A DNA stretch of 64,000 nt from a virus (IMGVR_UViG_3300027892_004026:1869-65868); one strand, 5' to 3'; positions 26,130 to 61,220 are shown, counted from the first letter of the stretch. Notes: a model not told the origin generated them from the letters alone. Made by a program: numbers and translations.

Positions 26130-27866
26130 ATGACATATAAAGAAATACTTTCTCAAATTATGACCGATTTATCTAACGATGATAATACCGTTTTTATTGG
26201 TCAACAGATAGTTTACAGGGGAAATCCGATGAGTACGACACTTGATGATGTCCCCAAAGAAAAGATGATTGAAGTACCGGTAATGGAAGAAACTCAAATG
26301 GGGATGAGTTTGGGTTTAGCGATGACGGGTAAAAGAGTTATTACATTTTACCCAAGATGGGACTTTTTAATATCCGCATCCAATCAATTAGTAAACCATG
26401 TGGACAAATATGAATTGATGACAGGTGAAAAAGTCCACATCATAATTAGGGTCGGTAAAGGGTCTGAGACACCATTAGATCCAGGGCATCAACATAAAGC
26501 AAATTATATAGAAGAATTTAAATCTTTGTGTAAACATACTAAAATTTTTGATTGTAAAACTATCGAGGAATTAAAATTACATTATCAATTTGCAAAAGAT
26601 AATGTTGGTGTGTATATTATAAATGAGTATCCAGAATTGTATCATAATAAAACAGTTTTAAATCTCATATCCGATGAATCGAATGAAAGTACTAACACAC
26701 TTATGATTGAAGATTTTATGGGAGATGGATGGTATGACATTGAAAATTATAAAATATGTGAAATTACTGAAATATCAGAAAGAAAAGATGAAAATTTTTA
26801 CCATTTGGTACATGTAAACTATTATTTATCTCTATATAGTTTAGAACATAAAGATTTACCAATCTCAGAAGAAATTAAAATTTTACTAAAGAAAAATCAA
26901 AACTTCAAAGTTATTTTTATAACAGAGCATGAATGTGACCTGGAAAATGTTATAAAAATCACGGATTTCTTACTTAGAATTATTGAAATACCGGCAAACC
27001 AAGTTTTTATTATAAATGGTAATCAGTTGTTACCACAATTAAAAAACGAGATAAATTCTAAAATAAATGTTCATGTGTCAAACAGACTTCCATTGGTGAT
27101 TACAAGAAATATTGTGAATTTGTGTGATGGATATCCGTTTAAAATCAATAAAGAAAAAACGTTTACGTGTTATAATAGGAATCTAACTATGCATAGATTA
27201 GGTATTTTAACGGCACTTAAACATCATAATTTATTAGATGATACCGATTGGTCTTTTCTAAGAGGAAATAGATTGTCCGCAATGAAATTAGAAAATGGTG
27301 ATATCGATTCTAATATTTTATTGACCGTATTTGACCAAGATTTAATTAATGAAACACAAAGTAGTTTAAACTTTTTTAAAAATATTGATATTAAAAAAAG
27401 TGAGTTTGAGGATTATGACGTGGATACCCCTGGTGGAGGTCAAGATTGGAATTCAATGTTTGAAAATAATCCATATAAACATTCATACATCAATATTGTC
27501 AATGAGTCTCAGTTTGAAAAAAATAATTTAATTCATATTACTGAGAAGACATTTATTCCTTTTTATTATTCACAGTTTCCATTAATTGTTGCTACTTATC
27601 AACACATTAAAAAAACAAAAGAACTCTATGGATTCGATTTTTTTGAAGATTTTTTTGATTTAAGTTATGATAATGAACCAAATCCACAAAAAAGAATGAG
27701 AATGATTATTGATGAAATTGTTAGAGTTAGTAAGAAAAAAAACCAATTACAGGGATTTTATCAAATCTCAAAAAAAAGGTTCAAACACAATAAAGATATA
27801 GTTACAAGTTTATATGATGATAAAACAGACCATAACTTTTTTCAAAGTTTAATAAATTTTCAGTAA
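26130..27866 (+). CDS. E1-beta/transketolase pyrimidine-binding domain fused to GT10-like domain
   Basis: FIGQ, PVMEETQMGMSLGLA, DQLVN-like SNQLVNH and GHQH in the N-terminal ~175 aa. C-terminal CYNRNLTMHR...INIVNES...ITEKTFIPF. ATG 26130 is preferred. Confidence 0.8.
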   Translation: MTYKEILSQIMTDLSNDDNTVFIGQQIVYRGNPMSTTLDDVPKEKMIEVPVMEETQMGMSLGLAMTGKRVITFYPRWDFLISASNQLVNHVDKYELMTGEKVHIIIRVGKGSETPLDPGHQHKANYIEEFKSLCKHTKIFDCKTIEELKLHYQFAKDNVGVYIINEYPELYHNKTVLNLISDESNESTNTLMIEDFMGDGWYDIENYKICEITEISERKDENFYHLVHVNYYLSLYSLEHKDLPISEEIKILLKKNQNFKVIFITEHECDLENVIKITDFLLRIIEIPANQVFIINGNQLLPQLKNEINSKINVHVSNRLPLVITRNIVNLCDGYPFKINKEKTFTCYNRNLTMHRLGILTALKHHNLLDDTDWSFLRGNRLSAMKLENGDIDSNILLTVFDQDLINETQSSLNFFKNIDIKKSEFEDYDVDTPGGGQDWNSMFENNPYKHSYINIVNESQFEKNNLIHITEKTFIPFYYSQFPLIVATYQHIKKTKELYGFDFFEDFFDLSYDNEPNPQKRMRMIIDEIVRVSKKKNQLQGFYQISKKRFKHNKDIVTSLYDDKTDHNFFQSLINFQ

Positions 27867-29533
27867 TGTACATACTCGGAATTTCATCGTTTTATCACGA
27901 TTCTTCAGCATGTTTATTCAAAGACGGAGAATTAGTGTTTGCTTGTGAAGAGGAAAAATTTACGGGAATTAAACACGATAGTTCTTTTCCAATTAATACA
28001 ATAGAATATATCTTCAGTCATTATAACATTACCCATAAGGATATTGATATGGTTTGTTATTATGAAAATCTTAATCTGAAATTGAAAAGAGTCTTAAATA
28101 ATATTAAGAAAAACTTTGTTACATCACCAAAATATTCTTTGAAGTCTTTGGTTAAAATCTTAAAAAATATTTCAGACGTAAATAAACATTTGAAACCGTT
28201 TAAGGAAAGAGTATTTTATTCTGAACACCATTTGGCTCATCAGTATTATTCATTTTTCACTTCCGATTTTGAAAAGGCAATCTGTTTGTCTATTGATGGT
28301 GTTGGAGAAATTGATACCTTATCTATTGGTTTAGCGGATGATGATGGAATTGAATATCATGATTTAGGGAAATATCCTCATTCATTGGGACTTTATTATT
28401 CTACAATGACTTCGTATTTGGGATTTAAACCAAATGAGGGAGAGTACAAACTAATGGGATTGGCATCATACGGAGACCCTCAAGAGCATATTGAAAAAGT
28501 TAGAAGTTTGATTGAATTCAAAGATGGAGAATTAATCTGTAATATGAATGTTTTTTGTTGGGATAGGTCGGAAAGAGTAATGTTCAATGAAAAACTAATT
28601 GAACATTTAGGTATTTCACCAAGGTTGACGGAAGAAGAAATTACTATAACTCATCAAAATTTAGCGGCATCAGTTCAACTAAGATACGAAGAAGTTTTAT
28701 TTGATATTATCAAAAGTTTGAAAAATCTTGGTAGTAATAATCTTTGCTTAGGAGGTGGTTCGGCATACAATGGTACTGCGAATGGAAAGATAGTTTCTAA
28801 TTCTGACTTTGATAAAATTTGGATACCAGTTGCTCCATCTGATGCTGGATCCTGTGTTGGAGCTTGTATTCATTACCTTATACAAAATAAAAAATTAGCC
28901 AAGAGAGTTACTAAGAATCCTTTTTTAGGACCAAAGTACGATGTTGAATTTTATTTGAGTCATATTAAAAATTTGAATTTTTTTGAAATTCACGATTACA
29001 ATAGATTAATAAAATACGTTGCAACAAAAATTCATGAAGGTAAAGTAGTTGGATGGTATAGAGATAGAATTGAATTTGGAGCAAGAGCATTAGGACATAG
29101 GTCTATTTTAGCTGACCCTACAGTTCCGAATATGAAATCGAGAATTAATAAGTTGATTAAGAAAAGAGAGGGCTTTCGTCCTTTTGCACCTATGGTCATT
29201 AAAGAAAAACAAAATGAATTTTTTCATACGATTGATGATGTACCATATATGAATCAAATTGTTAAAGTAAGGGAAGAATTTGCGGATAAATTATCTGCGG
29301 TTGTTCACGTGGATGGAACCTCAAGAATTCAAACTGTGTATGAGAACACTGTTATTCACGATTTATTAATTGAATTCGAAAAACTAAGTGGATTTCCCAT
29401 TATACTGAATACATCGTTTAACATTAAAGATAAAACAATGGTACTAACTCCGTTTGATGCGATAGAAACTTTCAAGGATACTGATTTAGACTTGCTAGTT
29501 TTAGATAATTATATAATACACAAAATACTATGA
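27866..29533 (+). CDS. Carbamoyltransferase (NodU/CmcH/TobZ family)
   Basis: GISSFYHDSSA, EHHLAH, GEYKLMGLASYG, SDAG, EFGARALGHRS, KREGFRPFAP, HVDGTSRIQTV and LNTSFN. Confidence 0.92.
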   Translation: MYILGISSFYHDSSACLFKDGELVFACEEEKFTGIKHDSSFPINTIEYIFSHYNITHKDIDMVCYYENLNLKLKRVLNNIKKNFVTSPKYSLKSLVKILKNISDVNKHLKPFKERVFYSEHHLAHQYYSFFTSDFEKAICLSIDGVGEIDTLSIGLADDDGIEYHDLGKYPHSLGLYYSTMTSYLGFKPNEGEYKLMGLASYGDPQEHIEKVRSLIEFKDGELICNMNVFCWDRSERVMFNEKLIEHLGISPRLTEEEITITHQNLAASVQLRYEEVLFDIIKSLKNLGSNNLCLGGGSAYNGTANGKIVSNSDFDKIWIPVAPSDAGSCVGACIHYLIQNKKLAKRVTKNPFLGPKYDVEFYLSHIKNLNFFEIHDYNRLIKYVATKIHEGKVVGWYRDRIEFGARALGHRSILADPTVPNMKSRINKLIKKREGFRPFAPMVIKEKQNEFFHTIDDVPYMNQIVKVREEFADKLSAVVHVDGTSRIQTVYENTVIHDLLIEFEKLSGFPIILNTSFNIKDKTMVLTPFDAIETFKDTDLDLLVLDNYIIHKIL

Positions 29534-29646
29534 AAAAAATTATTGATTGGTTCCTTAAAAAAATTAAAGAACGCAAAAGAAAAAAAGAGTTAAAAAAGAA
29601 AATTGAAGAATTAAGGAAAAGAGACCCATTTATTTATAATCATTGA
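29530..29646 (+). CDS. Small basic 38-aa protein (KRDPFIY tail), absent from the ORF track
   Basis: An ATGA overlap with the carbamoyltransferase stop. It translates MKKIIDWFLKKIKERKRKKELKKKIEELRKRDPFIYNH and fills the gap exactly. Confidence 0.65.
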   Translation: MKKIIDWFLKKIKERKRKKELKKKIEELRKRDPFIYNH

Positions 29647-29660: not shown

Positions 29661-30962
29661 ATGAGTTTATTTAATAAATTACGAATAAATTTGGGATACG
29701 ACTCAATGGATTTGAATAATAACCCAATTCCTAATCTCTATAATTTAGATATTACTTCAAACCCAAAGTTAAAAAAAATGACAGTAGATACACTGTTGGA
29801 TAATACGTATGGCAATTTTGTTTCAACAACTGTCGATTTTTTTTTCGAAAAGGGGGAAAATTTTATTTATCCTATAGTATTGTTTGAAAGTTTATTATTC
29901 ACTGAGACCAATACTATCGAACTATCACAAAAAATTGTTGATTCAATAAGAAAAAACAAAGTTAAAATAGTCATATTTTATTTGACTGAGGGATTTTATG
30001 GGCATTGGGATTGTGAATATATTTGGATTAATAATTTAGTTGAAAAATATCAAATTCAGAAAAATCAATTTATTGTCGTAACTTCAAATTTATTAGCGGA
30101 TGAAAAAAAGGTTGATAAAAATTTTATAATATATCCATATCCATTTTTTTTAAACCATATTTCTTTTTTTTGTAAAATTCAAAAGTTTCACCCTTCAACG
30201 GAAGTTTATTTTAACGACCACCGTGATTTTTTATCTGATAATATTGAAAAAAACAAAGATTATCATTTTTTGTGTTTCAATGGCATTCCAAAGTTACATA
30301 GGTTACTTGTGTTCTCGGAGTTTCTAACAAAACCTGAATATAAAGATAAATTTATTTTGACTATGGGAAAAACAAAAGGTAACATAGAAAAAAATTTTTA
30401 TGAAATAGTTAAAAATGGAACTCAAGGATATATTTTGGAAAACAAGAATACAATATTAGATTTTTTTGAAAAATATGATTCTCGGAATGAAAGAACTTAC
30501 GATAGGATTAACTTGTCACAAAATGGTAGGTTAAATGGAGGGACCATCAATGTGAAAGCTCACAAAAAATGTTTTGTAAATGTTGTTACCGAAACTTTAT
30601 GGGACACTGATAATTGTGTTTTTTTCACAGAAAAAACTTTGAAACCAATATATACTTGTCAACCGTTCATAATAGTTGGTAATCCATATACCTTAAAAAA
30701 ATTAAAAAACTATGGGTTTCAAACATTTTCACGATGGTGGGACGAAAGTTATGATGAAGAGACTGATGAATATAGAAGAATTGAAAAAATATTCAAAGTT
30801 ATGAGAGATATTTCAACTTGGGATAAAGATAAGTGTAGAGAAACTTTGGTTGAAATGAATGAAATACTCAAACACAACTTTAGAATTTTGTTTACTACTA
30901 CAGAATTGAAGAAGTTGTACTCATTGTTAAAAACACATGATGATAGTGTCAAAATAATTTGA
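29661..30962 (+). CDS. GT10-like putative glycosyltransferase (paralog family)
   Basis: CFNGIPKLHR...FVNVVTET...FTEKTLKPI...QPFIIVG. Confidence 0.5.
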   Translation: MSLFNKLRINLGYDSMDLNNNPIPNLYNLDITSNPKLKKMTVDTLLDNTYGNFVSTTVDFFFEKGENFIYPIVLFESLLFTETNTIELSQKIVDSIRKNKVKIVIFYLTEGFYGHWDCEYIWINNLVEKYQIQKNQFIVVTSNLLADEKKVDKNFIIYPYPFFLNHISFFCKIQKFHPSTEVYFNDHRDFLSDNIEKNKDYHFLCFNGIPKLHRLLVFSEFLTKPEYKDKFILTMGKTKGNIEKNFYEIVKNGTQGYILENKNTILDFFEKYDSRNERTYDRINLSQNGRLNGGTINVKAHKKCFVNVVTETLWDTDNCVFFTEKTLKPIYTCQPFIIVGNPYTLKKLKNYGFQTFSRWWDESYDEETDEYRRIEKIFKVMRDISTWDKDKCRETLVEMNEILKHNFRILFTTTELKKLYSLLKTHDDSVKII

Positions 30963-31007
30963 TTTTTATTCAAAAAATAATTATATTATAACTCATTGTT
31001 CCATTAT

Positions 31008-31508
31008 ATGATAATTCAAAAAATTTTATTTTCGAAGGAAGAGTGTGATGATATAATCAATATACACAAAGTTAATTCACAAAAATGGAAAAATTATGAC
31101 CGAGAGTATAAATCGTTTTCTATAATTTTGAATGGAGAGACCGAATGGATATTTTCTAAAATGAAAAACTTCTTTGAAAAAGAAAGTGGATTAAAGATTG
31201 AAACTATCAAGAATGAAGTTCATTTTCACGTGTTTAAAACTAATGATTGGTTTGGTGTACATAATGATGCTAGGAATAATAGATTGTTTTCACTAGGAGT
31301 TTTGTTGAACGATGATTTTGATGGGGGAGAATTTAAATTGTATCTTCAAGGGGAAGAAATTGTTTTAGAAAAAAAAGTTGGTAATACATATATTTTTGAC
31401 GCAGCAATTTCACATGAAGTAACGCCAATCCAATATGGGATTCGTTATTCCCTAATATGGTTTATTCAAAATAATAATGTAAAAACTAAACCAACAAAAT
31501 TTATATAA
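31008..31508 (+). CDS. 2OG-Fe(II) oxygenase (prolyl-hydroxylase-like)
   Basis: HND...LNDDFDGGEF...HEV...RYSL. Confidence 0.85.
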   Translation: MIIQKILFSKEECDDIINIHKVNSQKWKNYDREYKSFSIILNGETEWIFSKMKNFFEKESGLKIETIKNEVHFHVFKTNDWFGVHNDARNNRLFSLGVLLNDDFDGGEFKLYLQGEEIVLEKKVGNTYIFDAAISHEVTPIQYGIRYSLIWFIQNNNVKTKPTKFI

Positions 31509-31510
31509 AT

Positions 31511-32068
31511 ATGATTATTACCATATTATGTGAGCCAAGAAGTGGTTCAACTAATTTAATTAATTGGTTTTATCATAATAAAAATTTTAGTATTTTATTT
31601 ACACCTAGTGATCCTAAATCAAAATGGTATAAAGTAGGATCTCCAAAAAATTATAAATATAATACTCGATATTTTTTGATAAAAGAAGATTATTATCACT
31701 ACAAAAATTTTGATGAATTAGTTTCCATATCAGATAAGATAATATTACTTTACAGAGAAAATACGGAGGAACAGATAGAATCTTGGATAAATGCAATAAC
31801 AACAAAAAATTGGGATAAGCCATGGGTTTCAAAAAATATAAAAAATATTAATGAAACTCAATTTTTTATTGAATTAAAAAATAGTTTCAAAAAAGAATAT
31901 TTAGATAAAGAATATTTTAAAATATCGTATGAAGAATTATATTGTCGAAATGGGTTTCAAAAAATATTAGATTACTTGGGTATAAATGAGTTAGAAAATA
32001 AAGATTTTCCATACGGACAAAAATATAGGGTAGATGCCAACAAACCAAAAATAAAAAAATTAATTTAA
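31511..32068 (+). CDS. Sulfotransferase family protein
   Basis: N-terminal PAPS-binding loop PRSGST, LYREN...ES, and ISYEEL. Confidence 0.75.
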   Translation: MIITILCEPRSGSTNLINWFYHNKNFSILFTPSDPKSKWYKVGSPKNYKYNTRYFLIKEDYYHYKNFDELVSISDKIILLYRENTEEQIESWINAITTKNWDKPWVSKNIKNINETQFFIELKNSFKKEYLDKEYFKISYEELYCRNGFQKILDYLGINELENKDFPYGQKYRVDANKPKIKKLI

Positions 32069-32074
32069 TTTATT

Positions 32075-32695
32075 ATGATTTATCAAGAGGTTATTTTTAC
32101 TAAAAAAGAATGTGAAACAATTATGAATCTTAGAAATAATCATAAATTATTTTTTGTCACACCTGAATCGTCTCTCATCAAAAACACCCGTACAGTATAT
32201 CATAAAGAAAAAAATTTTAATGGTGTTGGATACGACAATTCAAAAGATTGGGTCAAAAGGTACAACGTTTGGGATATACCAATTAATAAAGAAACTTTTT
32301 GGTTTTATGATAGAATTTACAAATGGTTTTCAGAATTGACTAATATTCAAATTGACAGGGAAAAATATTTTAATCGCAGTGATGCCGCTCACAAAATTCA
32401 TGAGTACAATATAGGAGACAAATTTGATTTACATGCCGATCAAAATGATGGAAGTATTGATAGAATTTGGAATTTGGGTATTCAATTAAACTCCAATTAC
32501 GAAGGAGGCGATTATATTTGTTATGACAAAAATAATCACCCGATTAATATTTCTAAAGAAACAGGTAACACAATAGCGTATTCCTCTGATGTGTTACATG
32601 AAATAAATGAAATTTTACAAGGAAAAAGATATTCTTTAGTTGTCAAAATCTACTCATGGGAATTATACACCAAAAAAAACAAAAGTTTTATTTAA
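32075..32695 (+). CDS. 2OG-Fe(II) oxygenase
   Basis: FDLHAD...LNSNYEGGD...HEI...RYSL. Confidence 0.85.
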   Translation: MIYQEVIFTKKECETIMNLRNNHKLFFVTPESSLIKNTRTVYHKEKNFNGVGYDNSKDWVKRYNVWDIPINKETFWFYDRIYKWFSELTNIQIDREKYFNRSDAAHKIHEYNIGDKFDLHADQNDGSIDRIWNLGIQLNSNYEGGDYICYDKNNHPINISKETGNTIAYSSDVLHEINEILQGKRYSLVVKIYSWELYTKKNKSFI

Positions 32696-33268
32696 ATGAT
32701 TTATCAAAAAAAAATTTTCTCAAAAAAAGAATGTGATTTAATTATAGATTATGCGAACCGTTATAAAGATATTTCTATAAATCCTAAAACTTTTGAACTT
32801 CACGAAAAAAATAGGATAGTAAGTCCATCTAATTTTTTTATGCAGTATTATGTGTTTGGAATACCAATGAATGATTCCACCTTTTGGGTTTATAGTAGAT
32901 TATTTAAATGGTTCGAATTGGTGACAAGTGAAAAAATGTCGAACAATTTTGGTTCATTCATTTCAACTTTACATTGTTACAAAGAAAATGATGGATTTGG
33001 AAGACACATAGATTTGACGGAAGGATTTGAAGATAGGAGGTATAATATTGGAATTCAACTTAATGAAAATTATAGTGGTGGGGACTACATATGTTGGGAC
33101 GAAGACAAAAATGAAATATTGATATCAAAAAAAGTTGGTACATCACTTTGTTATCATGCTAAAATTGAACACGAAATAAAAATGGTGACAGGTGGTGAAA
33201 GATGGTCTTTGGTTGTACCAATAACTAAGAGAATGATAGTCAATCAGAATAAACCTAAAATTTTATAA
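32696..33268 (+). CDS. 2OG-Fe(II) oxygenase
   Basis: FGRHID...LNENYSGGD...HEI...RWSL. Confidence 0.85.
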   Translation: MIYQKKIFSKKECDLIIDYANRYKDISINPKTFELHEKNRIVSPSNFFMQYYVFGIPMNDSTFWVYSRLFKWFELVTSEKMSNNFGSFISTLHCYKENDGFGRHIDLTEGFEDRRYNIGIQLNENYSGGDYICWDEDKNEILISKKVGTSLCYHAKIEHEIKMVTGGERWSLVVPITKRMIVNQNKPKIL

Positions 33269-33345
33269 TTTAGTAAATAAAAAACCTACCATGACAAATC
33301 AATCATTTTATTATAATATGTTAAAGTTAGAAATAGTAAGAAAAT

Positions 33346-33834
33346 ATGAATGAAATCAAGAAAGAATATAATTTTTTAAATCAGTCAGAAATAAAATATT
33401 TAATTACTTTATCTGAAAATTTTGTAGTACACCAATTTGATTTGTATCATCAGACTGATGTTGATAAAGGTAATTTACAAACATATTTCAACACAATTAC
33501 TAAATATATATCAGAAAATTTTGTGGGAGAGTATCAGCTCAAAGCCATAGAAATGAACAGAGTTACTGAATCAGACATTATGGATGGGTATCACCAAGAT
33601 GATTGTGATTTAACATTTGTTACTTATTTTGAAATAAATTTTGAAGGTGGTGAATTTGAATATTTAGATGAAAAAAACTCAAATCTGATTGAACCTGAGG
33701 CTAATTTGACATTAATCATGGATAAAAATCTATTACATAGAATTAGACGAGTAAAAAAAGGTGAAAGATTTTCATTAGTTTCTTTTTTTATTTTAAAACC
33801 ATCAGTTCAAAAAAAAATTAAAACTTTTATTTAA
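33346..33834 (+). CDS. 2OG-Fe(II) oxygenase
   Basis: YHQD...FEGGEF...LHRI...GERFSL. Confidence 0.8.
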   Translation: MNEIKKEYNFLNQSEIKYLITLSENFVVHQFDLYHQTDVDKGNLQTYFNTITKYISENFVGEYQLKAIEMNRVTESDIMDGYHQDDCDLTFVTYFEINFEGGEFEYLDEKNSNLIEPEANLTLIMDKNLLHRIRRVKKGERFSLVSFFILKPSVQKKIKTFI

Positions 33835-33846
33835 AAAAACAATAAT

Positions 33847-34392
33847 ATGAACAAGGTAATCTTTGAAAATACATACGGGTATAAAGATTTTATTACCGAA
33901 GAAGAAAGACTTTTTTTAGAGGAGTGGGCCATCAATAATAACTCTTATCTTAAAAGAAACGGTAAAGGACCTTATCGTAATTTTGGTAGATTGGACAGTT
34001 TATCTGACATCCCGCCACTAATAAAGGAATTAAAAACCAAACTAATAGAATTAGAATCTATTGAAAAAGTAATCGAAGCTCCAAAAAATGCTGATTGGTT
34101 AGGTATACAAAAGGAAACCGCGTTTGTTGAGCCTCATATGGATTACAATGGTCCGGATGATAGATATTACACTAGAAGATATAACATATTAATATCTTTA
34201 CCCGAAGAAGGGGGACAACCTATATATGGGAATAAAGTATTAAATGTCAAAGAGAGGATGATTTGGAGATGTGATGCTGGATTAGTAATCCACTCAAGTA
34301 TACCAAACAAAGGTAAAAAACCAAGAATAAACCTATCTTTTGGGTTCTTAATGCCAAAATCAGGTAACTCATTCGAAACTAAATTAATGTGA
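33847..34392 (+). CDS. 2OG-Fe(II) oxygenase
   Basis: PHMD...PEEGGQP...HSS...RINLSFG. Confidence 0.75.
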   Translation: MNKVIFENTYGYKDFITEEERLFLEEWAINNNSYLKRNGKGPYRNFGRLDSLSDIPPLIKELKTKLIELESIEKVIEAPKNADWLGIQKETAFVEPHMDYNGPDDRYYTRRYNILISLPEEGGQPIYGNKVLNVKERMIWRCDAGLVIHSSIPNKGKKPRINLSFGFLMPKSGNSFETKLM

Positions 34393-34537
34393 CGAACCCA
34401 CACCAATCAAATAAAGTATTATATTTGCATAAAACAAAACAAGAATATGAAAGGTGCATTAATTATAAAAAATTAGATAATATTCTGAGTTATTAGATTT
34501 CTCAAATTCTCTAAAATTAAACAAACAAACTTTATAA

Positions 34538-35164
34538 ATGAAAATTTTACTTTTATACACACCTAGAAGTGGGTCTACTTCTATAATGAGATATTTTGAA
34601 AAACTGAAGCCCGAATATCAAATTTTCAACCAACCATGGTCCTCGTGGAAAGGTACTAAAAATTATCGGTTGAATGATTTTTTAGGGATGGATAAACTTT
34701 TTGTAAAAAATACGATAGATTGGGTTATGGATAATAAAGAAGATAGTGGAAAAATGAAATCTAATTCTATTCCAACAATTCAAGAGATTTTTAATTTTTT
34801 TGATAAGGTTTTGGTCTTATCGAGAAAAGATATAACTCAACAAAGTATAAGTTTGTATTTTTCATCCGAAAATAACTCTTACTTGGAAACATATGACCGA
34901 CTTTATAATATAGAATCTATAGATGAAACAAGATTAAATGAAATAAAATCCAATCTTACAAAGGATAATGATTTGGTAAATGAATTGGTGAATCTTGGTG
35001 TTAGTCATTATTATTATGAAGACTTGTATTATGAATCTTTCAATGACTTTTTTCAAACACTGAATTTAGACTATCATAATGAATATTTCGATAGATATTT
35101 GAATACCACAAAAAGATACAAAAAAGGGGAGGTGACAAATAAAGTTGTTAAAACATTTATTTAA
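34538..35164 (+). CDS. Sulfotransferase family protein
   Basis: YTPRSGST, LSRKD...QSIS and YYYEDL. Paralog of 31511..32068. Confidence 0.75.
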   Translation: MKILLLYTPRSGSTSIMRYFEKLKPEYQIFNQPWSSWKGTKNYRLNDFLGMDKLFVKNTIDWVMDNKEDSGKMKSNSIPTIQEIFNFFDKVLVLSRKDITQQSISLYFSSENNSYLETYDRLYNIESIDETRLNEIKSNLTKDNDLVNELVNLGVSHYYYEDLYYESFNDFFQTLNLDYHNEYFDRYLNTTKRYKKGEVTNKVVKTFI

Positions 35165-35174
35165 AAATTTTTAG

Positions 35175-35182
35175 TATTTATA
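35175..35182 (+). promoter_or_regulatory. TATTTATA candidate phage promoter element
   Basis: Intergenic, 28 nt upstream of ATG 35210. The same octamer precedes three other gene starts. Confidence 0.3.
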
Positions 35183-35209
35183 TTATAGTAATTTCAATTA
35201 TTAAAAATA

Positions 35210-35488
35210 ATGGATATAGACGTAAAAAAAATTGTTTCAGCATGGATGACATCATTTAGTCCTAATGATGATGAAAAAAAGTTGGCTGAGGATAGATATA
35301 ATATTTGTTCAACTTGTGACCGAAAAGAAAAAAATTTGTTAGGGATTGATGTTTGTAAGGAATGTGGATGCCCTCTGTCAAAAAAAATTTTTACGTTGAC
35401 AGATAGAGAAACTTGTCCCTTAAAAAAATGGGATGATTTAGATAGTGAGTTTAGAAAAAATAAAAAACATAAGTATAACTTATTTTAA
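35210..35488 (+). CDS. Small Cys-rich Zn-binding protein (DUF6171-like)
   Basis: RYNICSTC...CKECGCPL..K.....CPLKKW. Confidence 0.65.
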   Translation: MDIDVKKIVSAWMTSFSPNDDEKKLAEDRYNICSTCDRKEKNLLGIDVCKECGCPLSKKIFTLTDRETCPLKKWDDLDSEFRKNKKHKYNLF

Positions 35489-35517
35489 ATAAATTAAATT
35501 AATTCGTAAAATAAAGT

Positions 35518-37050
35518 ATGAGAAGTGTATTAATAAGTTTAGATTTTATTTACAGGGAAGATGGCAGCTTGACTCCATTAGAGTTGAATACTGAAACGAA
35601 AGATGATATTGATATTTGGAATATTACAAATGATAACTTTATCGAAATAACATCACCTTTTTTCAGACATGAAGAACTAAATCAATATTTGCAGTCAAAT
35701 AACATTACAAAAATAGTTGTAATTGCAGGTAATGCTCACAGTAAATACATAAAAGCGTTCGCGGATTTTTATAATTATGAATATACTTTGGTTTCGGTTG
35801 GAAAAAACCAAGTGACAGTTCCTGAAGTCGAAGACTCAGATGATACGATTATAATAAGAATTGCTTATGATACTTATGCCTTGATTGATGATTTGTATGC
35901 GAGGGATAATTATGAGTTTCATAATCTAATTAAAAACGAATCGTTCGCAAGTCCTGTAACTTTCACTGAAAATAATTTTGATACAATTCTTAATTTTGAG
36001 GATTCCCAAGACGGAACAATACCAAATTATGTTTTGAAGGCAAGAACACCAGGATACGTCAAATCCGAATATCCTAAAATTTACAAATTTGATAATGTTT
36101 CTCAACTTGAAAACTTGAAGTCCAATTTAAAAAATAATGAATTTATTCAAAAGTTTGAATATAATGAAAATCTTTCACTGATAGACCAAAGAACACATCA
36201 TTTAAGGAGTATGAATTTGATATGTGGAGAAAATTTAGATGTTGTTAATTTCATAAATTACAAGTCAAGTAATCTTGTTTCTATTGATAATACAAAATTA
36301 ATTAAAGACTATGAAATTAATGAAAATAATAGATTACACCCATTAAATGAATGTAAATATTATCCAACTTACTTGTCCAAGTATGGATTCAGATACCATT
36401 TCGATAATGAAGACAAAGTTTTAATGTGGGACAACAGTCTTAAACTTATTCAAGATGTAAACATAGGGGATATTTTTAAAGGAGTAAAATTTCCTCAGGG
36501 GCATGAAATTTTTCCTAATGACCCTGAATATGTAAATTTAAACGATATTGAAAATTTTGAATTGGAGGAGACAAAAGTAGTAAGTATTCAAGGGGGACAA
36601 CAGGGTATTTTTGCCAATATTACAGCATCGAATGAAGAATATGGTACTCTTTCTTGGTTTGACGGTATAAGTAATTTATATTTAGTATCTGGCGGAGATG
36701 TTCCAAATGGATTTGCTTTTTATCAAAAAGGGGGAGAGTTAGAGATTGGACAAAGGATATATGTCTATAACAAAAGTTCAAATACTATGATAGATTTTAT
36801 CGTTGAAGATTTATATTTTGATTTGAAAGATTTAACTTGTTATATCCTTTCTTTGTATAAAACACCTGAATTTTTAATTCAACTCGAACAAAATCATGAT
36901 CTTTACTTGGTACAACACAATAGTTGTAATGCTTATGGTTGTTACTATAATAGATATCCAGGTAGATGCACTGGTACATGTGATGATTGTGGAAAAGGTT
37001 CTCCCCTTTGTAATAATTGTGGGGGAGATGCTGGAGTACTGTGTTATTAA
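35518..37050 (+). CDS. Circularly permuted ATP-grasp-like domain + Hint domain + Cys-rich C-terminal peptide
   Basis: N-terminal DFIYREDGSLTPLELNT (D..ExN), later YVLKARTPG and FIQKF. Hint block A-like FDNEDKVLMWDNSLKLIQDVNIGD, block F-like CYILSL and terminal LVQHN|S, then 42 aa with 8 Cys. Confidence 0.65.
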   Translation: MRSVLISLDFIYREDGSLTPLELNTETKDDIDIWNITNDNFIEITSPFFRHEELNQYLQSNNITKIVVIAGNAHSKYIKAFADFYNYEYTLVSVGKNQVTVPEVEDSDDTIIIRIAYDTYALIDDLYARDNYEFHNLIKNESFASPVTFTENNFDTILNFEDSQDGTIPNYVLKARTPGYVKSEYPKIYKFDNVSQLENLKSNLKNNEFIQKFEYNENLSLIDQRTHHLRSMNLICGENLDVVNFINYKSSNLVSIDNTKLIKDYEINENNRLHPLNECKYYPTYLSKYGFRYHFDNEDKVLMWDNSLKLIQDVNIGDIFKGVKFPQGHEIFPNDPEYVNLNDIENFELEETKVVSIQGGQQGIFANITASNEEYGTLSWFDGISNLYLVSGGDVPNGFAFYQKGGELEIGQRIYVYNKSSNTMIDFIVEDLYFDLKDLTCYILSLYKTPEFLIQLEQNHDLYLVQHNSCNAYGCYYNRYPGRCTGTCDDCGKGSPLCNNCGGDAGVLCY

Positions 37051-37072
37051 TTATGAATTTAAAAATAAAAAA

Positions 37073-37189
37073 ATGGAAACTAATAAAATAATCAAACCAA
37101 AAACATTACCAGTTACAGATTCACAAAGGGAATCTATGAATATTATCACAAATAAAATAATTCAATTAATTAAGGATAAACATTTGTGA
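37073..37189 (+). CDS. Small 38-aa helical protein
   Basis: A-rich start context (aaaataaaaaaATG). It translates METNKIIKPKTLPVTDSQRESMNIITNKIIQLIKDKHL and fills the gap. It is the true end of the track's 36896..37189 ORF. Confidence 0.6.
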   Translation: METNKIIKPKTLPVTDSQRESMNIITNKIIQLIKDKHL

Positions 37190-37219
37190 TTCGCATAATA
37201 ATCAAATTGAGTTAGTTTT

Positions 37220-37759
37220 ATGGAAAAAATTTTTATTTCAGAAAATTTTTTATCTAAAAACGAGTGTGATAATATTCTAAAAACAATTTTTGATAAAACT
37301 ACCTTGGAAGTTGCTCGAATCGGGTCACAAGGAGGTCATATCCATACGCAATTAAGAAAGTCATCAACCTCATTCATCACGGAATTAGGAGACTTAAATC
37401 AAAAACTAGTTAGGGTACTTTCAGATAAAGTAAAAGTTAAAGGTGGTAATCCGACTAATCTGTCAGACTTTCAACTCACAAAGTATGATGTTGGGGACTA
37501 TTTTAATTGGCACATTGATCCTCCACACAGAGATTATACAATAATTATTTTTTTGAACAATGATTATCAAGGAGGAGAATTGGAAATTAAAGATGAGAAC
37601 GAAAAAGTTTTTAGAATAGAAAAAAAAGAAGGAAAACTTGTTGTATTCCCTTCTTTCCTTTTTCATCGTGTCACCAAAATTGAAAAAGGAATAAGATATT
37701 CATTAGTGAATTGGGTAGCTATTGAAAAAACACTGAATTATAAAAAAACTTTGATTTAG
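37220..37759 (+). CDS. 2OG-Fe(II) oxygenase (prolyl-hydroxylase-like)
   Basis: FNWHID...LNNDYQGGEL...FPSFLFHRV...GIRYSLVNW. Confidence 0.88.
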   Translation: MEKIFISENFLSKNECDNILKTIFDKTTLEVARIGSQGGHIHTQLRKSSTSFITELGDLNQKLVRVLSDKVKVKGGNPTNLSDFQLTKYDVGDYFNWHIDPPHRDYTIIIFLNNDYQGGELEIKDENEKVFRIEKKEGKLVVFPSFLFHRVTKIEKGIRYSLVNWVAIEKTLNYKKTLI

Positions 37760-37777
37760 TTAAATTAGACTCAAACT

Positions 37778-38599
37778 ATGAATGTTTTAAAATTTTGGAA
37801 TACTGATTCGTTCGAAATTTCTAGTTATAGATACGGAATATCCGAAAGAAAAAATTCTACGTATACAACATCTGGTACAGACACAACAGGAAAATGTTTG
37901 TATCAATACAATGAATTAGGATTTAGAGGAGACTCTATGTATAAACAAGGTTTTAAAATTCTATCAATAGGAGATTCCAACACTGAAGGAGTAGGATTGA
38001 ATAACAATGATACATGGTCATCGAGGTTTTCGAATTTTTTTAGTAATGGAGTAAATATGAATTTTGGTACGGGAGGAAGAAGTAATGATTTTATCGCTAG
38101 ATGTTTGTTAACATATTTCGATTTGATTAAACCTGATTTAGTTTTGGTCATGTACACCTCTCCTCAACGCAGAGAAGTATATACGAAATATAATACAATA
38201 GAGCCTTTTATGCCAACCGCTTCTTGGGGGTATACTAAAGAAACTGAGGAGGGGCAGCATATTCAGAAAAATCTGATAGAAATACAAAATGATGGTGAAG
38301 ATTTTGTAAATTGGTATAAAAATCATCTTTTGATTAAATATTTTTTACAATCAAAAAATTGTAATTGGTTGTGGAACGGATGGATGTTAAATTATGAAGG
38401 GTATGATGAGTTCAATCGTTATGATGGTGACTATGGTAAATTTTTAGATTATGCGGTTGATGGAACTCATCCAGGTATTCTTCATAATAGATTGTACTCA
38501 AAAAATTTGGTTAACCACATCAAATTAAATTTTTTAGATTATATTCCCATAAATAATTTTAAAGAAGATGCGAATGATGTTCACACTAAACTCTTTTAA
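37778..38599 (+). CDS. SGNH/GDSL-like protein
   Basis: YNELGFRG leader, IGDSNT, NFGTGGRSN and DGTHPG. Paralog of 9873..10727. Confidence 0.7.
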   Translation: MNVLKFWNTDSFEISSYRYGISERKNSTYTTSGTDTTGKCLYQYNELGFRGDSMYKQGFKILSIGDSNTEGVGLNNNDTWSSRFSNFFSNGVNMNFGTGGRSNDFIARCLLTYFDLIKPDLVLVMYTSPQRREVYTKYNTIEPFMPTASWGYTKETEEGQHIQKNLIEIQNDGEDFVNWYKNHLLIKYFLQSKNCNWLWNGWMLNYEGYDEFNRYDGDYGKFLDYAVDGTHPGILHNRLYSKNLVNHIKLNFLDYIPINNFKEDANDVHTKLF

Positions 38600-47992: not shown

Positions 47993-48063
47993 TTATCGAG
48001 GTACTACTTTATTTAGTTTTCAACAAAACTATATTATTGAGTGTATAAAACCTAATATCTGGT

Positions 48064-48071
48064 TATTTATA
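48064..48071 (+). promoter_or_regulatory. TATTTATA candidate phage promoter element
   Basis: Intergenic, just upstream of ATG 48088 at the start of the structural block. Confidence 0.3.
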
Positions 48072-48087
48072 TAGGAACAATTCTTAA

Positions 48088-51000
48088 ATGGGTATAATAT
48101 CAGTAAATTTTTATAGTGGGGGAACAGATGAATATCTGAAAGCCCTTACATGCTCCTCAACATCTTATAACTTAAACTTTGATGGAGACCCTGGAAATCC
48201 GAATCCAAACTTTTGTGATCTTGATGAATTGTTGTCTTGTGATATTACACCATTTGAAGCTCAAATTGCTGTAGGTCAAGAATTTTATCTTTCATCTGCA
48301 GGGCAAATTAGGGAATTTATACGACCATCTGCGGCGTCTGTTGCTTTTCAAAATGACAGTTTTGCCGGAGGGTGCCAACCCTGTTCTGTAGAAACTCCAA
48401 CTCCAACTCCCACACCATCACCTACTCCTATTGATTCATGTGTTTGTTATCAATATGCAAATGATGGAGAACCTACCGGTATAAATTCAATAACTTATTT
48501 AGATTGTGATCATGTACCGCAATCTATAAATAACGTTCCTTTTAGCCCTGCGGTTAACTATTTTTGTGCTATACTCGGAAGTGTTACTGCAACTGTAGGT
48601 TTAACTATTATCCAAGTTGATGAAAGTCTTTGTCCTGGAGGTGGATGTGTTGAAGGATTCACACCTACACCAACTCCAACGAATACTGAAACTCCAACAG
48701 AAACACCTACAAATACTGTAACACCAACAAGTACCTCAACTACAACACCTACAAATACTGGAACACCAACAAGCACCCCAACCCAAACCACTACGGTTGG
48801 ATTGACTCCAACTGCGACCGAAACCCAAACACCGACTCCAACTGAAACACCAACACAAACTCAGACTCCTACAGAAACCTCAACTCAGACTCCTACTCAA
48901 ACGGCAACGAATACTGCCACGCCAACAAATACTACGACTCAAACTCCTACTGAAACTCCAACACAAACGGCAACGAATACTGCCACGCCAACGAATACTA
49001 CGACTCAAACTCCTACTAACACTGCAACACAGACTCAAACTCCTACAAATACTGCAACACAGACTCAAACTCCAACTAATACCGCAACACAGACTCAAAC
49101 TCCTACAAATACTGCAACACAGACTCAAACTCCAACTAATACCGCAACACAAACTCCAACAACGACACAAACACCGTCACCAACAAATAGTATTGTTATA
49201 CAATTTCAAGATTGTACAAATGGTTCAAACATATTCAGATTTGGAGGACCAAGTATTCCTACTGTAATTGGTGATGTATATTGTATTACTAATAGTATTG
49301 AATTCGAAGGGTGTGCAACAATTGTAAGTGGGTTCACTAGTGGGACTCTATACAATTCTGTTGGAGTTACATTCACACAGGTTCCAACATGTGCGGATTC
49401 TTCATGTCCAAGAACCGCTCTAACCGCCGCTTTATTAACAAAATGCTCCGACGGAAGTGTATTATACGCCAATGTAAATGAAGATACTGCATTTGTTGGT
49501 GCTGCTTATCTTTATAATGGGGAGTGTTATAGTTTCGTTGAATTCTCAGGGCCAGGTGGGCCTGATTTTGGTGACCCTGATTTTGATGATTGTTCTTTTT
49601 GTGTACCTACGTCAACTCCGACCAATACACCACAACCTACACCGACGAATACTCCGACAGTATCACCGTCACCATCGGCATGTGCATTTACTGACTTCTG
49701 TTTCTATACCACATTACCATCTTTCTCAGGGTACAATGGAAACTATGAATCGGCCGGAACTTACAACTCAAGAATTTATTATTCGGGAGATGGAATAACT
49801 TCTGCGGTTATCTATCATACTGGTAGTTTTTGGTGTTTAAGCGATACCTTGGGAGGAACTTGTTTATTAAGAGGTTCCAATCCTTGTAATTCACAATGCC
49901 CTGATATTTCTTCAAATGATTTTGAAGGAGGAATTTGCCCAACTCCAACGCCAACTGGTGTTGATTGTTCAATATTTGATTTCAATGCTTATTTTGATTG
50001 TGATTGGGAGCCATTACCAACGCCAACTCCGAGTGTTGCTTGTGATGATGTTAATTTCATCATAGATTCAATAGGAGTAACTCCTACACCAACTCCTTCG
50101 GGTAACTTCTGTTCTGGTGTGGGTATTGATTTTAGTTTAAGTGGATTCACTTCAACAACTCCAACTGTGACATTGACACCTTCAGTTACACTTACAAGAA
50201 CCGTGTCCATTGAAGGTAGTGTTACTTTTGAAATGTTGGATGAAACATTTAGTTGTGTATCTGCTAAGGTATTAACTGATTGTGGTAGTGGAGAAGAATT
50301 CTATACGACCGATAGCTTGTCCTTCTTGGGAACTCCTGTATTAATTGGTATGACAATGTTTGTCCAAGTTAACGGAGTGAATCGTTGTGTGATTTATTCT
50401 CGAGATGACCAAAACTTATCATCTAATAGCACACTTGGAGCCATTGTACAAATCTATTCTTCTTGTGAATACTGTAGTACAATACCAACTCCAACACCAA
50501 CTACTACATCAACACCGACGAACACTCCTACATCAACTGCAGGAATTACACCAAGTGTAACTAAAACACAAACTCCAACACCATCTCAGACTGCAACTTT
50601 AGGAACTACACCTCCACCAACACCGACTCAAACTAGAACTCCAACCGCTACAAACACGCCAACACCATCTATAACCGCATCTCCATCAGCAACACCTAAT
50701 TTCCTATATGTATATGAGTCTTGTAACCGTATCGGTGGAGGAAGAGGAACAATAACTCAAGTTATCCAAACACAACCAGTATCTTTCACAATTGCGGTAA
50801 ATGAAACATTCAAAGATAACGATGGAAATTGTTGGTATTATATTGGCCAGTTTAATACATCTTATATTGCACCACCAAAAGTTACGCCAATAAACTTTGG
50901 AGGTAATTATTTTATAGGTGTTTCAAGTCAAACTTATTCTAATTGTGAGACCTGTGCTACAGGAAACATCGGAGCATTTGGAGAAAGTGGTGTGAGTGAT

Positions 51001-51207
51001 ATAAGTATTTTTGACGCTTGTTCGGACGCTATTATCAATCCGAAAACATTATATTCAAATTGTGAGACGATTAATGTTGGATGTGTATTATATACAGATT
51101 CAACTTTACAGAATGTAGTTAGTGAAATATATGTATACCATCAAGGAGCCAATTGGGACCTTAATGGATCTGGTGGAGTAATCGGATTATCATCAACACA
51201 ATGTTAA
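48088..51207 (+). CDS. Thr/Pro-repeat (mucin-like) putative virion protein with Cys-rich modules
   Basis: Long TPT(N/Q/E) tracts separate several ~60-70 aa modules with paired Cys. Confidence 0.65.
49021..49140 (+). repeat. 30-bp coding tandem repeat x4 ([10 protein letters not shown])
   Basis: ac(t/c)gcaacacagactcaaactcc(taca/aact)aat repeated in frame, with a 60-bp higher-order period. Confidence 0.9.
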
Positions 51208-51218
51208 ATAAATAAGAA

Positions 51219-51443
51219 ATGGGAGTACAAGTTACAATAAATAATATTTCAGGAGTAACACCTTATGATATTTATGTCTGTCAAGTTGATGGGTCAGGTT
51301 GTTTTTATATATCAACTATAGGTTCAACATTTCCATATATATTTGATATCCCTTCACCATATGATTTATCTCCAAACTATATGGTTAAGGCGATTGATGC
51401 AAACAATTGCATAATTTCAGGTACTAGTGCTGTAATATTATGA
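51219..51443 (+). CDS. 74-aa beta-rich protein homologous to the N-terminal module of the next gene
   Basis: VQVTI...TPYDIYVC...CFYIST...FPYIFDIPSPYD...D..NCI aligns with QQVTI...TPVEIFYC...CVYVST...FPFTFSVPPPYD...D..GCI. Confidence 0.75.
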   Translation: MGVQVTINNISGVTPYDIYVCQVDGSGCFYISTIGSTFPYIFDIPSPYDLSPNYMVKAIDANNCIISGTSAVIL

Positions 51444-54400
51444 GTCAACAAGTAACAATTACATCAGTAACCGCAAATACACCAGTAGAAATATTCTACT
51501 GTGATTCATTTAGCGCGAACTGTGTATACGTTTCAACCGTTTCAGTTTTTCCATTTACTTTCTCTGTACCTCCTCCTTATGATGAATCGAATATAGTAAT
51601 AAAAATCGAGGATACTAGTGGTTGTATTGATGGTGAAATAATATTTGTTACTCCTACACCAACTTCAAGTGTGACTCCAACAGTTACTATAACACCAACA
51701 AACACGTCAACTCAAACAAATACTCCGACGGTAAGTCCGACGGTAAGTCCAACAAATACCTTCACTCCGACTCAGACACAAACAAATACTCCTACTCCGT
51801 CAGTAACACCAGTATTTTCACTTCACTTGATTGGGCAAAATACATTTTCAACTTCAGCAAACACATGTAATGACCAATTAACTTTTGATAATTACTATAC
51901 CTACCTGAATGAAGCGGACACAGTACCTGTAGTTGGAGTTAAAATTTATCAAACAGCCTTCGGTGGAGTTCTATTTAATCCTTATAACGGTAATAACCAA
52001 TATACTAAATTTACTTTCGGAGGAAATGAGTATGCTGTTGAGGTTGATACTAGTGGAACCATAGTAAGTTTCGACCTATGCGGTGTATTGGTTACTGTTA
52101 CACCAACTAATACACCTACGGCAACAAATACACCTACCAATACCACAACTTCAACATTAACACCTACAAATACACAGACAAATACACAAACAATCACCCC
52201 AACAAATACTACAACTCAGACAGTGACTCCGTCCACAACTGCCACTTTTGGATTGACTCCAACTGCTACCGAGACACAAACTCCTACACAAACAGCGACA
52301 CAAACTCAAACTCCAACAAATACTGAAACTGCGACACCAACTACAACATCGACACCAACTCAAACTCCGACTGCAACTATTGGAAATAACGAAATAACTT
52401 TAGATGGATTTATATTTTCTGGATCAGTAGGGGCGGGATTCTCGGCAACATCTGAGGCACCTGTGGCAGACGATTTCACGGTCAATTTTAATGCTGTCTT
52501 GGGAGTTACAACTGGTGGAACTATTACAATACCGGTTTCAATATTAATTCCAATCGGTGAATCTTCTGGATTTACTCAAACATTCGTAAATGGTGACTAT
52601 AATAGTTTGAACCAAACTGCGGCACTGACAGATATTAGTTATTCAACTTCTGCGACAACATCATTTACTTTCGCTTCAGAATTTTTCTTTAATGTAACCC
52701 CAACGCCAACTCAATCACCAACTCCAACAGAAACACCAACACAAACTGTTACTCGAACTCCTACAAATACTGCTACTGAGACTTTAACTAACACTCCCAC
52801 TCAAACACCAACCAAAACCGCGACTAATACTCCAACAAATACTGAGACACCGACTAATACTCCTACTGAGACACCTACAAATACTCCTACAGAAACGCCT
52901 GCTAACACTCAAACTCCGTCACAAACTGCGACTGCGACTCCTACAGAAACACCGGTACCAACTGCTTCTGAAACTCCTACAAATACTCCAACTAATACTG
53001 AGACATCTACTCCAACTAATACAGAAACTCCAACGCAAACAGGAACTGCTGCGGTAACACCAACCACAACAACAACTTTAACAGCAACTAATACAGAAAC
53101 TCCGACAAATACTGCTACTGAAACACCTACAAATACTCAAACTCCAACTGAAACACCGACAGAGACACCTACAAACACTCCGAGTGAGACTCCTACTAAT
53201 ACTCCAACTAATACTGAAACATCTACGCCAACTAATACTGAAACACCAACAAATACGCCAACGCCAGAATCTACACCTACTGAGACACCGACTGAAACAC
53301 CTACAGAAACACCTACACCAGAAGCTACAACTACACCAACTAATACACCTACTGAGACACCAACTAATACCGCAAGTGTAACACCTACTAATACTACAAG
53401 TGTAACACCTACTAACACATCAACTCCAACAAATACTGCAGGTGAAACTCCAACAGTTACTCCAACAGTTACTCCAACAAAAACAGTTACACCTACAGTT
53501 ACTTCAACTCCTACAGGAACTTCGGTAACACCAACTGTAACACCAACCAAAACAACAACACCAACTGTAACACCAACTTCAACACCTTGTACAGTTTTAG
53601 ATGGAAGTTTATTATTTAACGGTAGTAGTCAATCATTAGGATTAAGTCCTGGTGTGATTTTTGGAGTCGGTTCATACACTGTTGAGGGATGGTTCTATAA
53701 TACCTCAGGCTTCGTTAATAAAGGGATATTGGGGGTTCCTGTTAGTAGTAATATAGGAGCGTTAAACTTGTTCTTTGGAAGTAGTACAGCAATCGTTACA
53801 GACAAAAATGGTGGAGGAGGTCAATATACCTATAACATGGCATCCGCTATTAGTGTAAATGCTTGGCACTATTTCATATACAATAGTAATTCTGATGGAA
53901 CTACAGCGGTTTACATTGATGGTGTAAGAAGTCTAAATACTCAGGTTGACACATATAATTATACAACCGCAACTGATACTGTTGGTAGATTCTATTCAGG
54001 ATATTGGCCAGGTTATTGGACTAATATGAGAATAACTAAAGGAACTGCGGTCTATAATTCAAATTTAACAACTCAACTTAATCCAAAAGCGCCTCTTACA
54101 TCGTTACCAAACACTAAATACTTAATGTTAGGTGCGTCAATAACAACGGATTCGTCTGGTACTCAAACTGTAACAAACATTGGTGGTGTTACATTAAGTA
54201 CTTTACAACCTTGTCCAGGACCAACTCCAACTCCTACGGTAACGGCAACTAATACTGTTACTCCAACTAACACTCCGACAAATACTACAACATCAACTCA
54301 AACACCGACCAACACTGCAAGTAATACTCAAACACCAAGTAATACTGCAACTAATACACAAACACCAACTCAAACACCAACCAATACTCAAACACCAACA

Positions 54401-55870: not shown

Positions 55871-55889
55871 AAATAAAGATAGATATAAA

Positions 55890-58643: not shown

Positions 58644-58704
58644 TGAATAAACCTATACAAAAAATACTTAAAACCTATAATTATAGGATATAATAAATTA
58701 ATAG

Positions 58705-61216: not shown

Positions 61217-61220
61217 GACA

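Follow-up and report, generated by a model that had tools for sequence, protein, structure and literature searches.

A common C-terminal tail on enzymes of unrelated families in a viral operon encoding a putative ATP-grasp–Hint protein

Genes of the tagged block

The window analyzed here (IMGVR_UViG_3300027892_004026:1869-65868, 64,000 nucleotides) covers 64 kb of an AT-rich viral contig that is 65.9 kb long and has ~28% GC over most of that length, and nearly all of its genes lie on the + strand. This report concerns a block of + strand genes at positions 30996-38599, in which proteins of unrelated folds end in a common short tail, consisting of a lysine-bearing stretch followed by two hydrophobic residues at the extreme C-terminus. 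A sequence-only reading of the window had listed ten such C-termini, all of which were found exactly as written. It had also named two exceptions within the block, a large gene with a Hint domain at 35518-37050 and a 38-residue open reading frame at 37073-37189, and both were confirmed.

Five of the tagged proteins were assigned to the 2-oxoglutarate (2OG)-Fe(II) oxygenases (PF13640), with Pfam scores of 30.8-59.6 bits against a cut-off of 27. They are encoded at 30996..31508 (end KPTKFI, with the Pfam domain stopping 13 residues short of the C-terminus), 32075..32695 (KNKSFI), 32696..33268 (NKPKIL), 33346..33834 (KIKTFI), and 37220..37759 (canonical tag KKTLI; E = 6e-16). The iron triad and the arginine of this family (H98, D100, H149, and R159) were invariant over 25 sequences. 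A sixth 2OG oxygenase had been proposed at 33847..34392; this tagged 181-residue protein (end ETKLM) gave a weak match below the Pfam cut-off (E = 0.09, 14 bits) and is described here as weakly 2OG-like.

The products of 31511..32068 (end KIKKLI) and its paralogue 34538..35164 (end VKTFI), previously read as sulfotransferases, showed weak profile matches (Sulfotransfer_3, E = 0.013; NodH, E = 0.057) together with conserved Arg10, Gly12, Arg82, and Ser91, residues that we take to fit the 3'-phosphoadenosine 5'-phosphosulfate (PAPS)-binding motifs of known sulfotransferases. They are referred to below as sulfotransferase-like. Orthologues of the former retained the tail beyond a variable linker. 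In two related loci, an adenosine 5'-phosphosulfate (APS) kinase gene (L029:6714-7151 and L053:8676-9113) was located in the same cluster as sulfotransferase-like genes, an arrangement that fits a phage-supplied PAPS pool for sulfation.

The 92-residue Cys-rich product of 35210..35488 (variant tag KYNLF) weakly matched DUF6171 and is Zn-finger-like, and the product of 37778..38599 (end TKLF) weakly matched SGNH/GDSL proteins; both assignments had been made in the sequence-only reading and both matches fell under the Pfam thresholds. The Zn-finger gene adjoined the homologue of 35518-37050 in every fully listed locus that has it. The untagged gene 35518..37050 encodes a putative ATP-grasp region (residues 1-290), a Hint domain of the bacterial intein-like (BIL) type (residues 294-468), and a Cys-rich peptide (residues 469-510), and is called the ATP-grasp–Hint gene below. 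It is followed by the untagged 38-residue microprotein gene at 37073..37189.

Enrichment and consensus of the tail

A strict motif was defined as Lys at position -3 or -4 followed by two residues from the set Phe, Leu, Ile, and Met at the end. Ten of the 11 genes in 30996-38599 encoded proteins ending in two hydrophobic residues, nine of these with Lys at -3 or -4. The enrichment check against the rest of the contig, which had been named beforehand, gave the strict motif in 9/11 genes of the block versus 3/42 elsewhere (Fisher p = 2.4e-6), in agreement with the earlier statement that most genes outside the block end otherwise. Two of the three outside matches were genes directly upstream, both on the + strand and both borderline. 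One, at 27866..29533, encodes a carbamoyltransferase (end HKIL) whose end lies within its Pfam domain and therefore is probably not an appended tag; the other, at 29661..30962, encodes a 433-residue protein of no assigned family (end VKII).

The sequence-only reading had named AT-rich codon bias among the findings that would undo it. The motif made up 0.0076 of the internal 4-mers in the same proteins and occurred at 0.028 ahead of off-frame stop codons. Composition or chance was therefore ruled out as an explanation, since these nulls amount to 0.8-2.8% versus 82% observed.

Using the SGNH protein and the product of 35518-37050 as queries, 24 related viral loci were collected, which together with the window formed a pool of 405 distinct genes. 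The same tail was observed in >25 related viral loci overall, with the consensus K-[KTSN]-L-[IL]-COOH. Within the pool, 175 genes encoded two hydrophobic end residues. Among these 175 tails, Lys occupied position -4 in 82 (47%), Leu position -2 in 108, and Ile or Leu position -1 in 155, whereas position -3 was divided between Thr or Ser (60) and Lys or Asn (62). Further upstream, at -5 to -7, Lys was more frequent than any other residue and was present in about one tail in four; Arg was rare, and many tails contained a single Lys. The stop codon followed the motif directly in all tagged genes. When family members were aligned from the C-terminus, in pairs pre-selected for hydrophobic ends, identity was 0.43-0.54 at -1/-2 versus 0.08-0.13 at -5 to -13. 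The last residue differed between clades, one having 24 Leu versus 14 Ile and the others mostly Ile. Such a shift might reflect co-evolution with a common reader; being confounded by shared descent, it was not used as evidence.

The tail as a protein-level add-on

Structural modeling located the tail outside the catalytic fold, as the sequence-only reading had supposed. In the AlphaFold2 model of the 2OG oxygenase 37220-37759 (predicted local distance difference test score, pLDDT, 87), the last strand ended at residue 166 of 179, residues 167-179 were coil, and the last nine residues had a mean pLDDT of 58. Homologous 2OG proteins of cultured cyanophages stopped within a few residues of that last strand. 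Untagged paralogues inside the clusters likewise ended at the fold, namely a 156-residue 2OG protein, a 77-residue Zn-finger protein, and, in a complete 326-kb genome, a 2OG protein encoded among the glycan genes. The tail is thus a flexible extension of about 10-25 residues beyond the fold. The linker preceding it varied in length within families, and the tail itself was retained across these variable linkers in orthologues.

We also considered whether the conserved feature might reside in the DNA. The nucleotide sequences of the tails differed among the window genes. Over the 175 tagged genes, the Leu, Thr, Asn, and Lys codons of the tail matched genome-wide synonymous usage; ATA and TGA were in excess because ATGA overlaps require both. 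TAA, TGA, and TAG were all used as stops after the tail, and the gap to the next start ranged from -53 to >100 nt, much as in untagged genes. At the hydrophobic positions, Leu, Ile, Phe, Met, and Val interchanged, and therefore the amino acid class was conserved rather than the bases. Because synonymous codons, stops, and spacing vary freely, it is the protein, rather than an element in the DNA, that is under selection. On these grounds a DNA-level element and a signal in the initiation region of the next gene were both rejected as candidates. Paralogy was rejected as well, since the tail is carried by unrelated folds, which upholds the earlier argument that shared ancestry does not explain it. 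The tail is a short linear motif at the C-terminus, kept by selection at the level of the protein.

The possibility that it has no function, being a by-product of AT-rich composition, paralogy, or a gene-boundary DNA element (promoter, translation-initiation region, or recombination site), draws some plausibility from a 28% GC genome, where codons for Lys, Ile, Phe, and Leu are frequent, from the paralogy of 6/10 window carriers, and from the tight packing of the genes, but it can be considered close to negligible in view of the composition nulls, the unrelated folds, and the codon, stop, and spacing data above, and because the tail is missing from other genes of the contig that are likewise tightly packed.

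Tagged families and confinement to one operon

At least 12 unrelated families carried the tail. Tagged members numbered 52/57 for the 2OG oxygenases, 23/26 for the SGNH family (in which the tail follows a linker of variable sequence), 17/17 for a radical SAM protein of about 350 residues, 12/12 for the sulfotransferase-like proteins, 11/12 for the Zn-finger proteins, 11/11 for two SET-domain families, and 5/5 for a class I methyltransferase. Several families of no assigned fold were tagged as well. Homologues of a Trp halogenase (Pfam E = 4e-89) and of an Asp/Asn beta-hydroxylase came from more distant loci, and each of the two ended in a canonical tail. By contrast, homologues of the ATP-grasp–Hint protein were tagged in 0/19 cases. 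The tagged set is typical of enzymes that tailor peptides or proteins: it comprises prolyl-hydroxylase-like and Asp/Asn-hydroxylase-like oxygenases, radical SAM proteins, SET proteins, and class I methyltransferases, together with sulfotransferase-like proteins, a flavin halogenase, SGNH proteins, and a small Zn-finger protein.

The distribution of the tail within genomes was equally uneven. In the complete 326-kb genome, a loose form of the motif was found in 11/12 genes of a single run versus 44/368 genes elsewhere (p = 2.5e-9), and the sole untagged gene of that run was the homologue of 35518-37050. An ATP-grasp–Hint gene was present in every SGNH-anchored locus with enough upstream sequence. 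Conversely, in loci found through the ATP-grasp–Hint gene, down to 25% identity, the neighbors were tagged. Two such loci (L054 and L055) contained a co-directional mini-operon made up of a Zn-finger gene, the ATP-grasp–Hint gene, the microprotein gene (annotated in L054 only), and one enzyme gene; the Zn-finger protein and the enzyme were both tagged, whereas two hydrophobic end residues were observed in only 2-3 of the opposite-strand neighbors (16 in L054 and 13 in L055).

The ATP-grasp–Hint protein and its neighbors

The 35518-37050 product was modeled with a pLDDT of 76. Residues 294-468 formed a Hint fold (Foldseek E = 6e-8), which aligned with a DnaB mini-intein over 148 residues (Z = 16.6, rmsd 2.8 A) and corresponded to intein residues 1 to last. 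By sequence, this part matched the BIL2 domain of Tetrahymena (E = 0.002). Of its last two residues, N468 was invariant and H467 was present in >=90% of 15 sequences. Position 1 is occupied by His294 in the window protein, and no conserved Cys, Ser, or Thr was aligned there in the 15 sequences. For lack of such a residue, the domain is not a splicing intein, and C-terminal cleavage alone would be predicted.

The N-terminal part resembles a permuted ATP-grasp domain of the glutathione synthetase/GspS/YjfC type, an assignment weaker than that of the Hint domain. Foldseek matched residues 1-290 to YjfC, YgiC, GspS, and glutathione synthetases with E = 1e-5 to 2e-4 over about 300-375 columns. Glu22-x-Asn24 was invariant in the family, as were Lys and Arg residues; by analogy with glutathione synthetase, Glu-x-Asn is presumably the Mg-binding motif.

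The Hint Asn was followed by a hypervariable peptide, 30-68 residues long and containing 6, 8, 10, or 12 Cys, which is represented in the window by residues 469-510 with 8 Cys. The Cys count, always even (6-12), suggests a disulfide-rich product. Three Trp residues were present in this peptide where a halogenase was encoded and one where it was not, a comparison drawn from a very small sample and not used. Some relatives contained a tail-fibre-type S74 self-cleaving chaperone domain after the Cys-rich peptide. In L029:10001-11791 and L053:10001-11764, the peptide was located between the Hint His-Asn and an S74-type domain with a Ser-Asp-Arg-Arg-Leu-Lys motif, and the two modules together would excise precisely the Cys-rich segment.

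A microprotein of 25-50 residues was encoded directly 3' of the ATP-grasp–Hint gene in 18/18 loci examined. Its sequence was clade-dependent, and it is probably a single amphipathic helix. A second conserved microprotein, of 38-39 residues and very rich in Lys and Arg, was encoded right after the carbamoyltransferase gene (window 29530-29646; L053:8506-8625), the last 11 residues being identical between the two loci.

No homologue of the ATP-grasp–Hint protein was obtained by tblastn against 50,697 GenBank phage records, and a pattern scan of 185,579 prokaryote genomes gave no match. Literature searches on the tail or on the ATP-grasp–Hint fusion found no published description.

Genomic setting

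The region 541-47793 of the window contained genes for sugar-nucleotide and glycan enzymes, radical SAM proteins, methyltransferases, and a carbamoyltransferase, and 48088-63410 encoded very large proteins without Pfam match, weakly similar to cyanophage structural proteins. Relatives of the block were seen solely in uncultured viral contigs, one of them the complete 326-kb genome, which encodes a T4-type major capsid protein. The operon type thus belongs to uncultured myophages of aquatic habitats that are T4-like. When the block was compared with GenBank phages by megablast, no match was obtained. A hypervariable 'host recognition cluster' is known in T4-like pelagimyophages and cyanomyophages (PMC7029224), and the setting of the block matches that cluster of T4-like phages.

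Several other features of the region were observed. Over 48001-62000, GC content rose from ~0.28 to 0.37-0.40 and GC skew turned negative, with the genes there still on the + strand; the change coincided with five very large proteins without Pfam match, including one that has a Thr-Pro repeat at its end. In the phage glycan cluster, a eukaryote-type beta-1,4-galactosyltransferase (Glyco_transf_7N plus 7C) was fused to a lectin-like Laminin_G_3 domain (window 541-1965, L054:5798-8613, and L055:5608-8440), and this fusion was duplicated in some relatives. Upstream of the ATP-grasp–Hint gene in one locus (L001:2016-7190), 12 tandem paralogues of 98-157 residues were encoded, 11 of which had near-identical C-termini. 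Adjoining the tagged block of another (L009:16320-19707), three tandem paralogues of ~370 residues followed an 1811-residue protein; each ended in a conserved Ser-Gly-His-Cys-Gly-Trp-Arg motif, and they are possible further substrates.

Function of the tail and alternative explanations

The sequence-only reading had proposed a common address tag and had left the choice of reader among a scaffold or substrate, a protease, a compartment, and the capsid. The address-tag part is consistent with an add-on that crosses folds, is selected at the protein level, and is found in one type of operon; as to the reader, the data favor a partner from the same operon. Two findings favor such a reader, the confinement of the tag to the operon and the constant presence of the ATP-grasp–Hint protein in it. 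This protein in particular is favored because it is the sole invariant large protein of the operon and because ATP-grasp relatives act on peptide carboxylates. That the tag is always exactly C-terminal suggests that the carboxylate is part of what is recognized. We therefore consider that the tail may serve as a docking or recognition handle for the ATP-grasp–Hint protein as candidate reader, and we put the probability of this reading at roughly 0.5.

If so, the tail and its free alpha-carboxylate would be read by proteins of the 35518-37050 type, and the handle would bring whatever tailoring enzymes a phage carries to this common partner. The docked enzymes would then modify the Cys-rich peptide, the putative substrate, and the Hint domain would cleave at its C-terminal end, ahead of that peptide. 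The logic of ribosomally made peptides that are modified post-translationally (RiPPs) would thereby be reversed: the enzymes would carry the recognition peptide, and the recognition domain would be part of the precursor. A fuller version, in which a self-removing ATP-grasp–Hint precursor delivers a disulfide-rich peptide, the enzymes plug in through a universal four-residue tag, and the ATP-grasp part perhaps acts chemically on the tagged termini, is offered tentatively as one possible form of a peptide-maturation system.

Several points weigh against docking on the ATP-grasp–Hint protein. The reader could instead come from the host or from another part of the phage genome, and the substrate could be the neighboring fibre-like proteins rather than the Cys-rich peptide. 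The Foldseek matches to ATP-grasp proteins have TM scores of 0.25-0.29, on a whole-protein scale with the domain placed within the full model. Two hydrophobic end residues are also present in a few enzymes of the adjacent glycan cluster, some members within the clusters have degenerate tails (e.g. ending in Thr or Lys), and the related loci, being of shared ancestry, do not count as independent cases of how the tag arose.

Among the other functions considered, the chief competitor is a degron or unfoldase tag, likeliest of the ClpX C-motif-2 kind, so that the enzymes would be short-lived or passed to ClpX at a set time of infection. The type example is the phage Mu transposase (MuA), in which a basic patch precedes a terminal Ala-Ile. 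The degron of MuA ends in RRKKAI (PMC12723719), and the tail is closely similar in its extreme C-terminal position and its aliphatic end and, less clearly, in its Lys-rich -3 to -7 positions; it is also flexible and exposed, and there is phage precedent. However, the best conserved positions are Leu and Ile/Leu and not the basic patch, Lys being present at -4 in less than half of the tails. The tag is moreover confined to one operon of the 326-kb genome and absent from homologous enzymes of cultured cyanophages, and there is no apparent reason for turnover of just these enzymes across a dozen families. We regard a degron as rather unlikely. If it were of the ClpX type, it would provide a rare case of a whole phage enzyme operon under programmed proteolysis.

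The tail might also be more than a docking site, namely a substrate. The ATP-grasp part would then activate the terminal carboxylate and ligate it to an amine, such as the Hint-freed N-terminus of the Cys-rich peptide, or add residues in the manner of RimK or tubulin-tyrosine ligase. The nearest folds phosphorylate a peptide's C-terminal carboxylate, and chemistry on this group is established for enzymes of the glutathione synthetase/GspS type. The invariance of Glu22-x-Asn24 and of the Lys and Arg residues, the strictly C-terminal position of the motif, and the free amine that Hint cleavage at the invariant Asn would yield all point in the same direction. Joining many different enzymes to one peptide would, however, have no obvious use, and the ATP-grasp part could equally act on the Cys-rich peptide or the microprotein, which makes modification of the tail itself improbable.

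Targeting of the enzymes to the virion, to a tail-fibre assembly intermediate, or to another compartment would fit the location of the operon in a fibre-containing hypervariable region of T4-like phages, the S74 tail-fibre-type chaperone domain in some versions of the ATP-grasp–Hint protein, and the large fibre-like proteins encoded downstream of the block. Yet the tail is unlike any known packaging signal, oxygenases with cytoplasmic co-substrates would be odd cargo, and no shell or compartment gene was found among the scanned cluster proteins; this explanation appears very improbable.

Were the tail a universal plug for the ATP-grasp–Hint protein, it would explain how tailoring enzymes are swapped in a hypervariable operon without re-evolving substrate recognition, since new enzymes would enter the pathway merely by gaining the tail. 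Pathway members could also be found in metagenomes by a simple sequence rule, and the four residues could serve as a portable tag with which arbitrary enzymes are brought to a scaffold. Such a plug would further indicate a class of Cys-rich phage peptides, heavily modified and so far undescribed, released from a self-cleaving precursor and encoded in the host-recognition region.

Comparison with known systems

The tail was compared with known C-terminal signals. An encapsulin cargo-loading peptide is C-terminal and of the Gly-Ser-Leu type; the consensus found here differs, and no shell gene was present among the scanned cluster proteins. Nor do the tails behave as PDZ-type ligands, which have Ser or Thr (class I) or a hydrophobic residue (class II) at the third position from the end, as Thr or Ser is found at -3 in 60/175 and Lys or Asn in 62/175, and no PDZ domain was detected in the Pfam-scanned cluster proteins. 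With the tail of single-stranded DNA-binding protein (SSB) and other C-terminal hub peptides, the tail shares a flexible extension, a hydrophobic end, and a carboxylate that would be part of recognition. In the SSB type, however, one acidic tail serves many partners, whereas here many proteins have one basic tail for presumably one partner. ClpX C-motif-2 of MuA likewise is phage-encoded, lies at the very C-terminus, and has an aliphatic end with a free carboxylate, and its basic patch has a possible counterpart in the Lys positions of the present tail; it differs from this tail, in which Leu and Ile/Leu are best conserved and which is found on a dozen enzyme families of one operon only.

With respect to gene content, the closest parallel is the tandem dioxygenase/halogenase/sulfotransferase array gp41-gp61 of syn9 in T4-like cyanophages (Iyer et al., 2010; PMC2938197), and arrays of this type were proposed to modify peptides or metabolites (PMC2938197). 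Both systems place diverse 2OG oxygenases and halogenases in a hypervariable region of T4-like phages, but the syn9 array has no common tail, such an ending being present in 1/17 of its genes. The ATP-grasp–Hint protein itself compares with BIL and Hedgehog-type Hint proteins in the fold of residues 294-468 and the retained terminal His-Asn. It differs from them in having no Cys, Ser, or Thr at position 1, in its fusion to the putative ATP-grasp part, and in the Cys-rich peptide that follows.

The proposed docking on the ATP-grasp–Hint protein resembles the systems in which RiPP leaders are bound by RiPP recognition elements (RREs) and those built on docking domains of polyketide synthases and nonribosomal peptide synthetases, where a short recognition element connects a changeable tailoring set with one precursor or partner. 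No RRE or PqqD-like domain was matched by Pfam in the scanned cluster proteins, so the system would be RiPP-like in its working at most and is not a member of that class. The enzyme types are those of RiPP pathways, namely radical SAM proteins, hydroxylases, methyltransferases, and a halogenase. The polarity would be the opposite, in that the enzymes would bear the peptide and the putative precursor the folded domain, and the 'leader' would be a self-removing ATP-grasp–Hint module of 470 residues.

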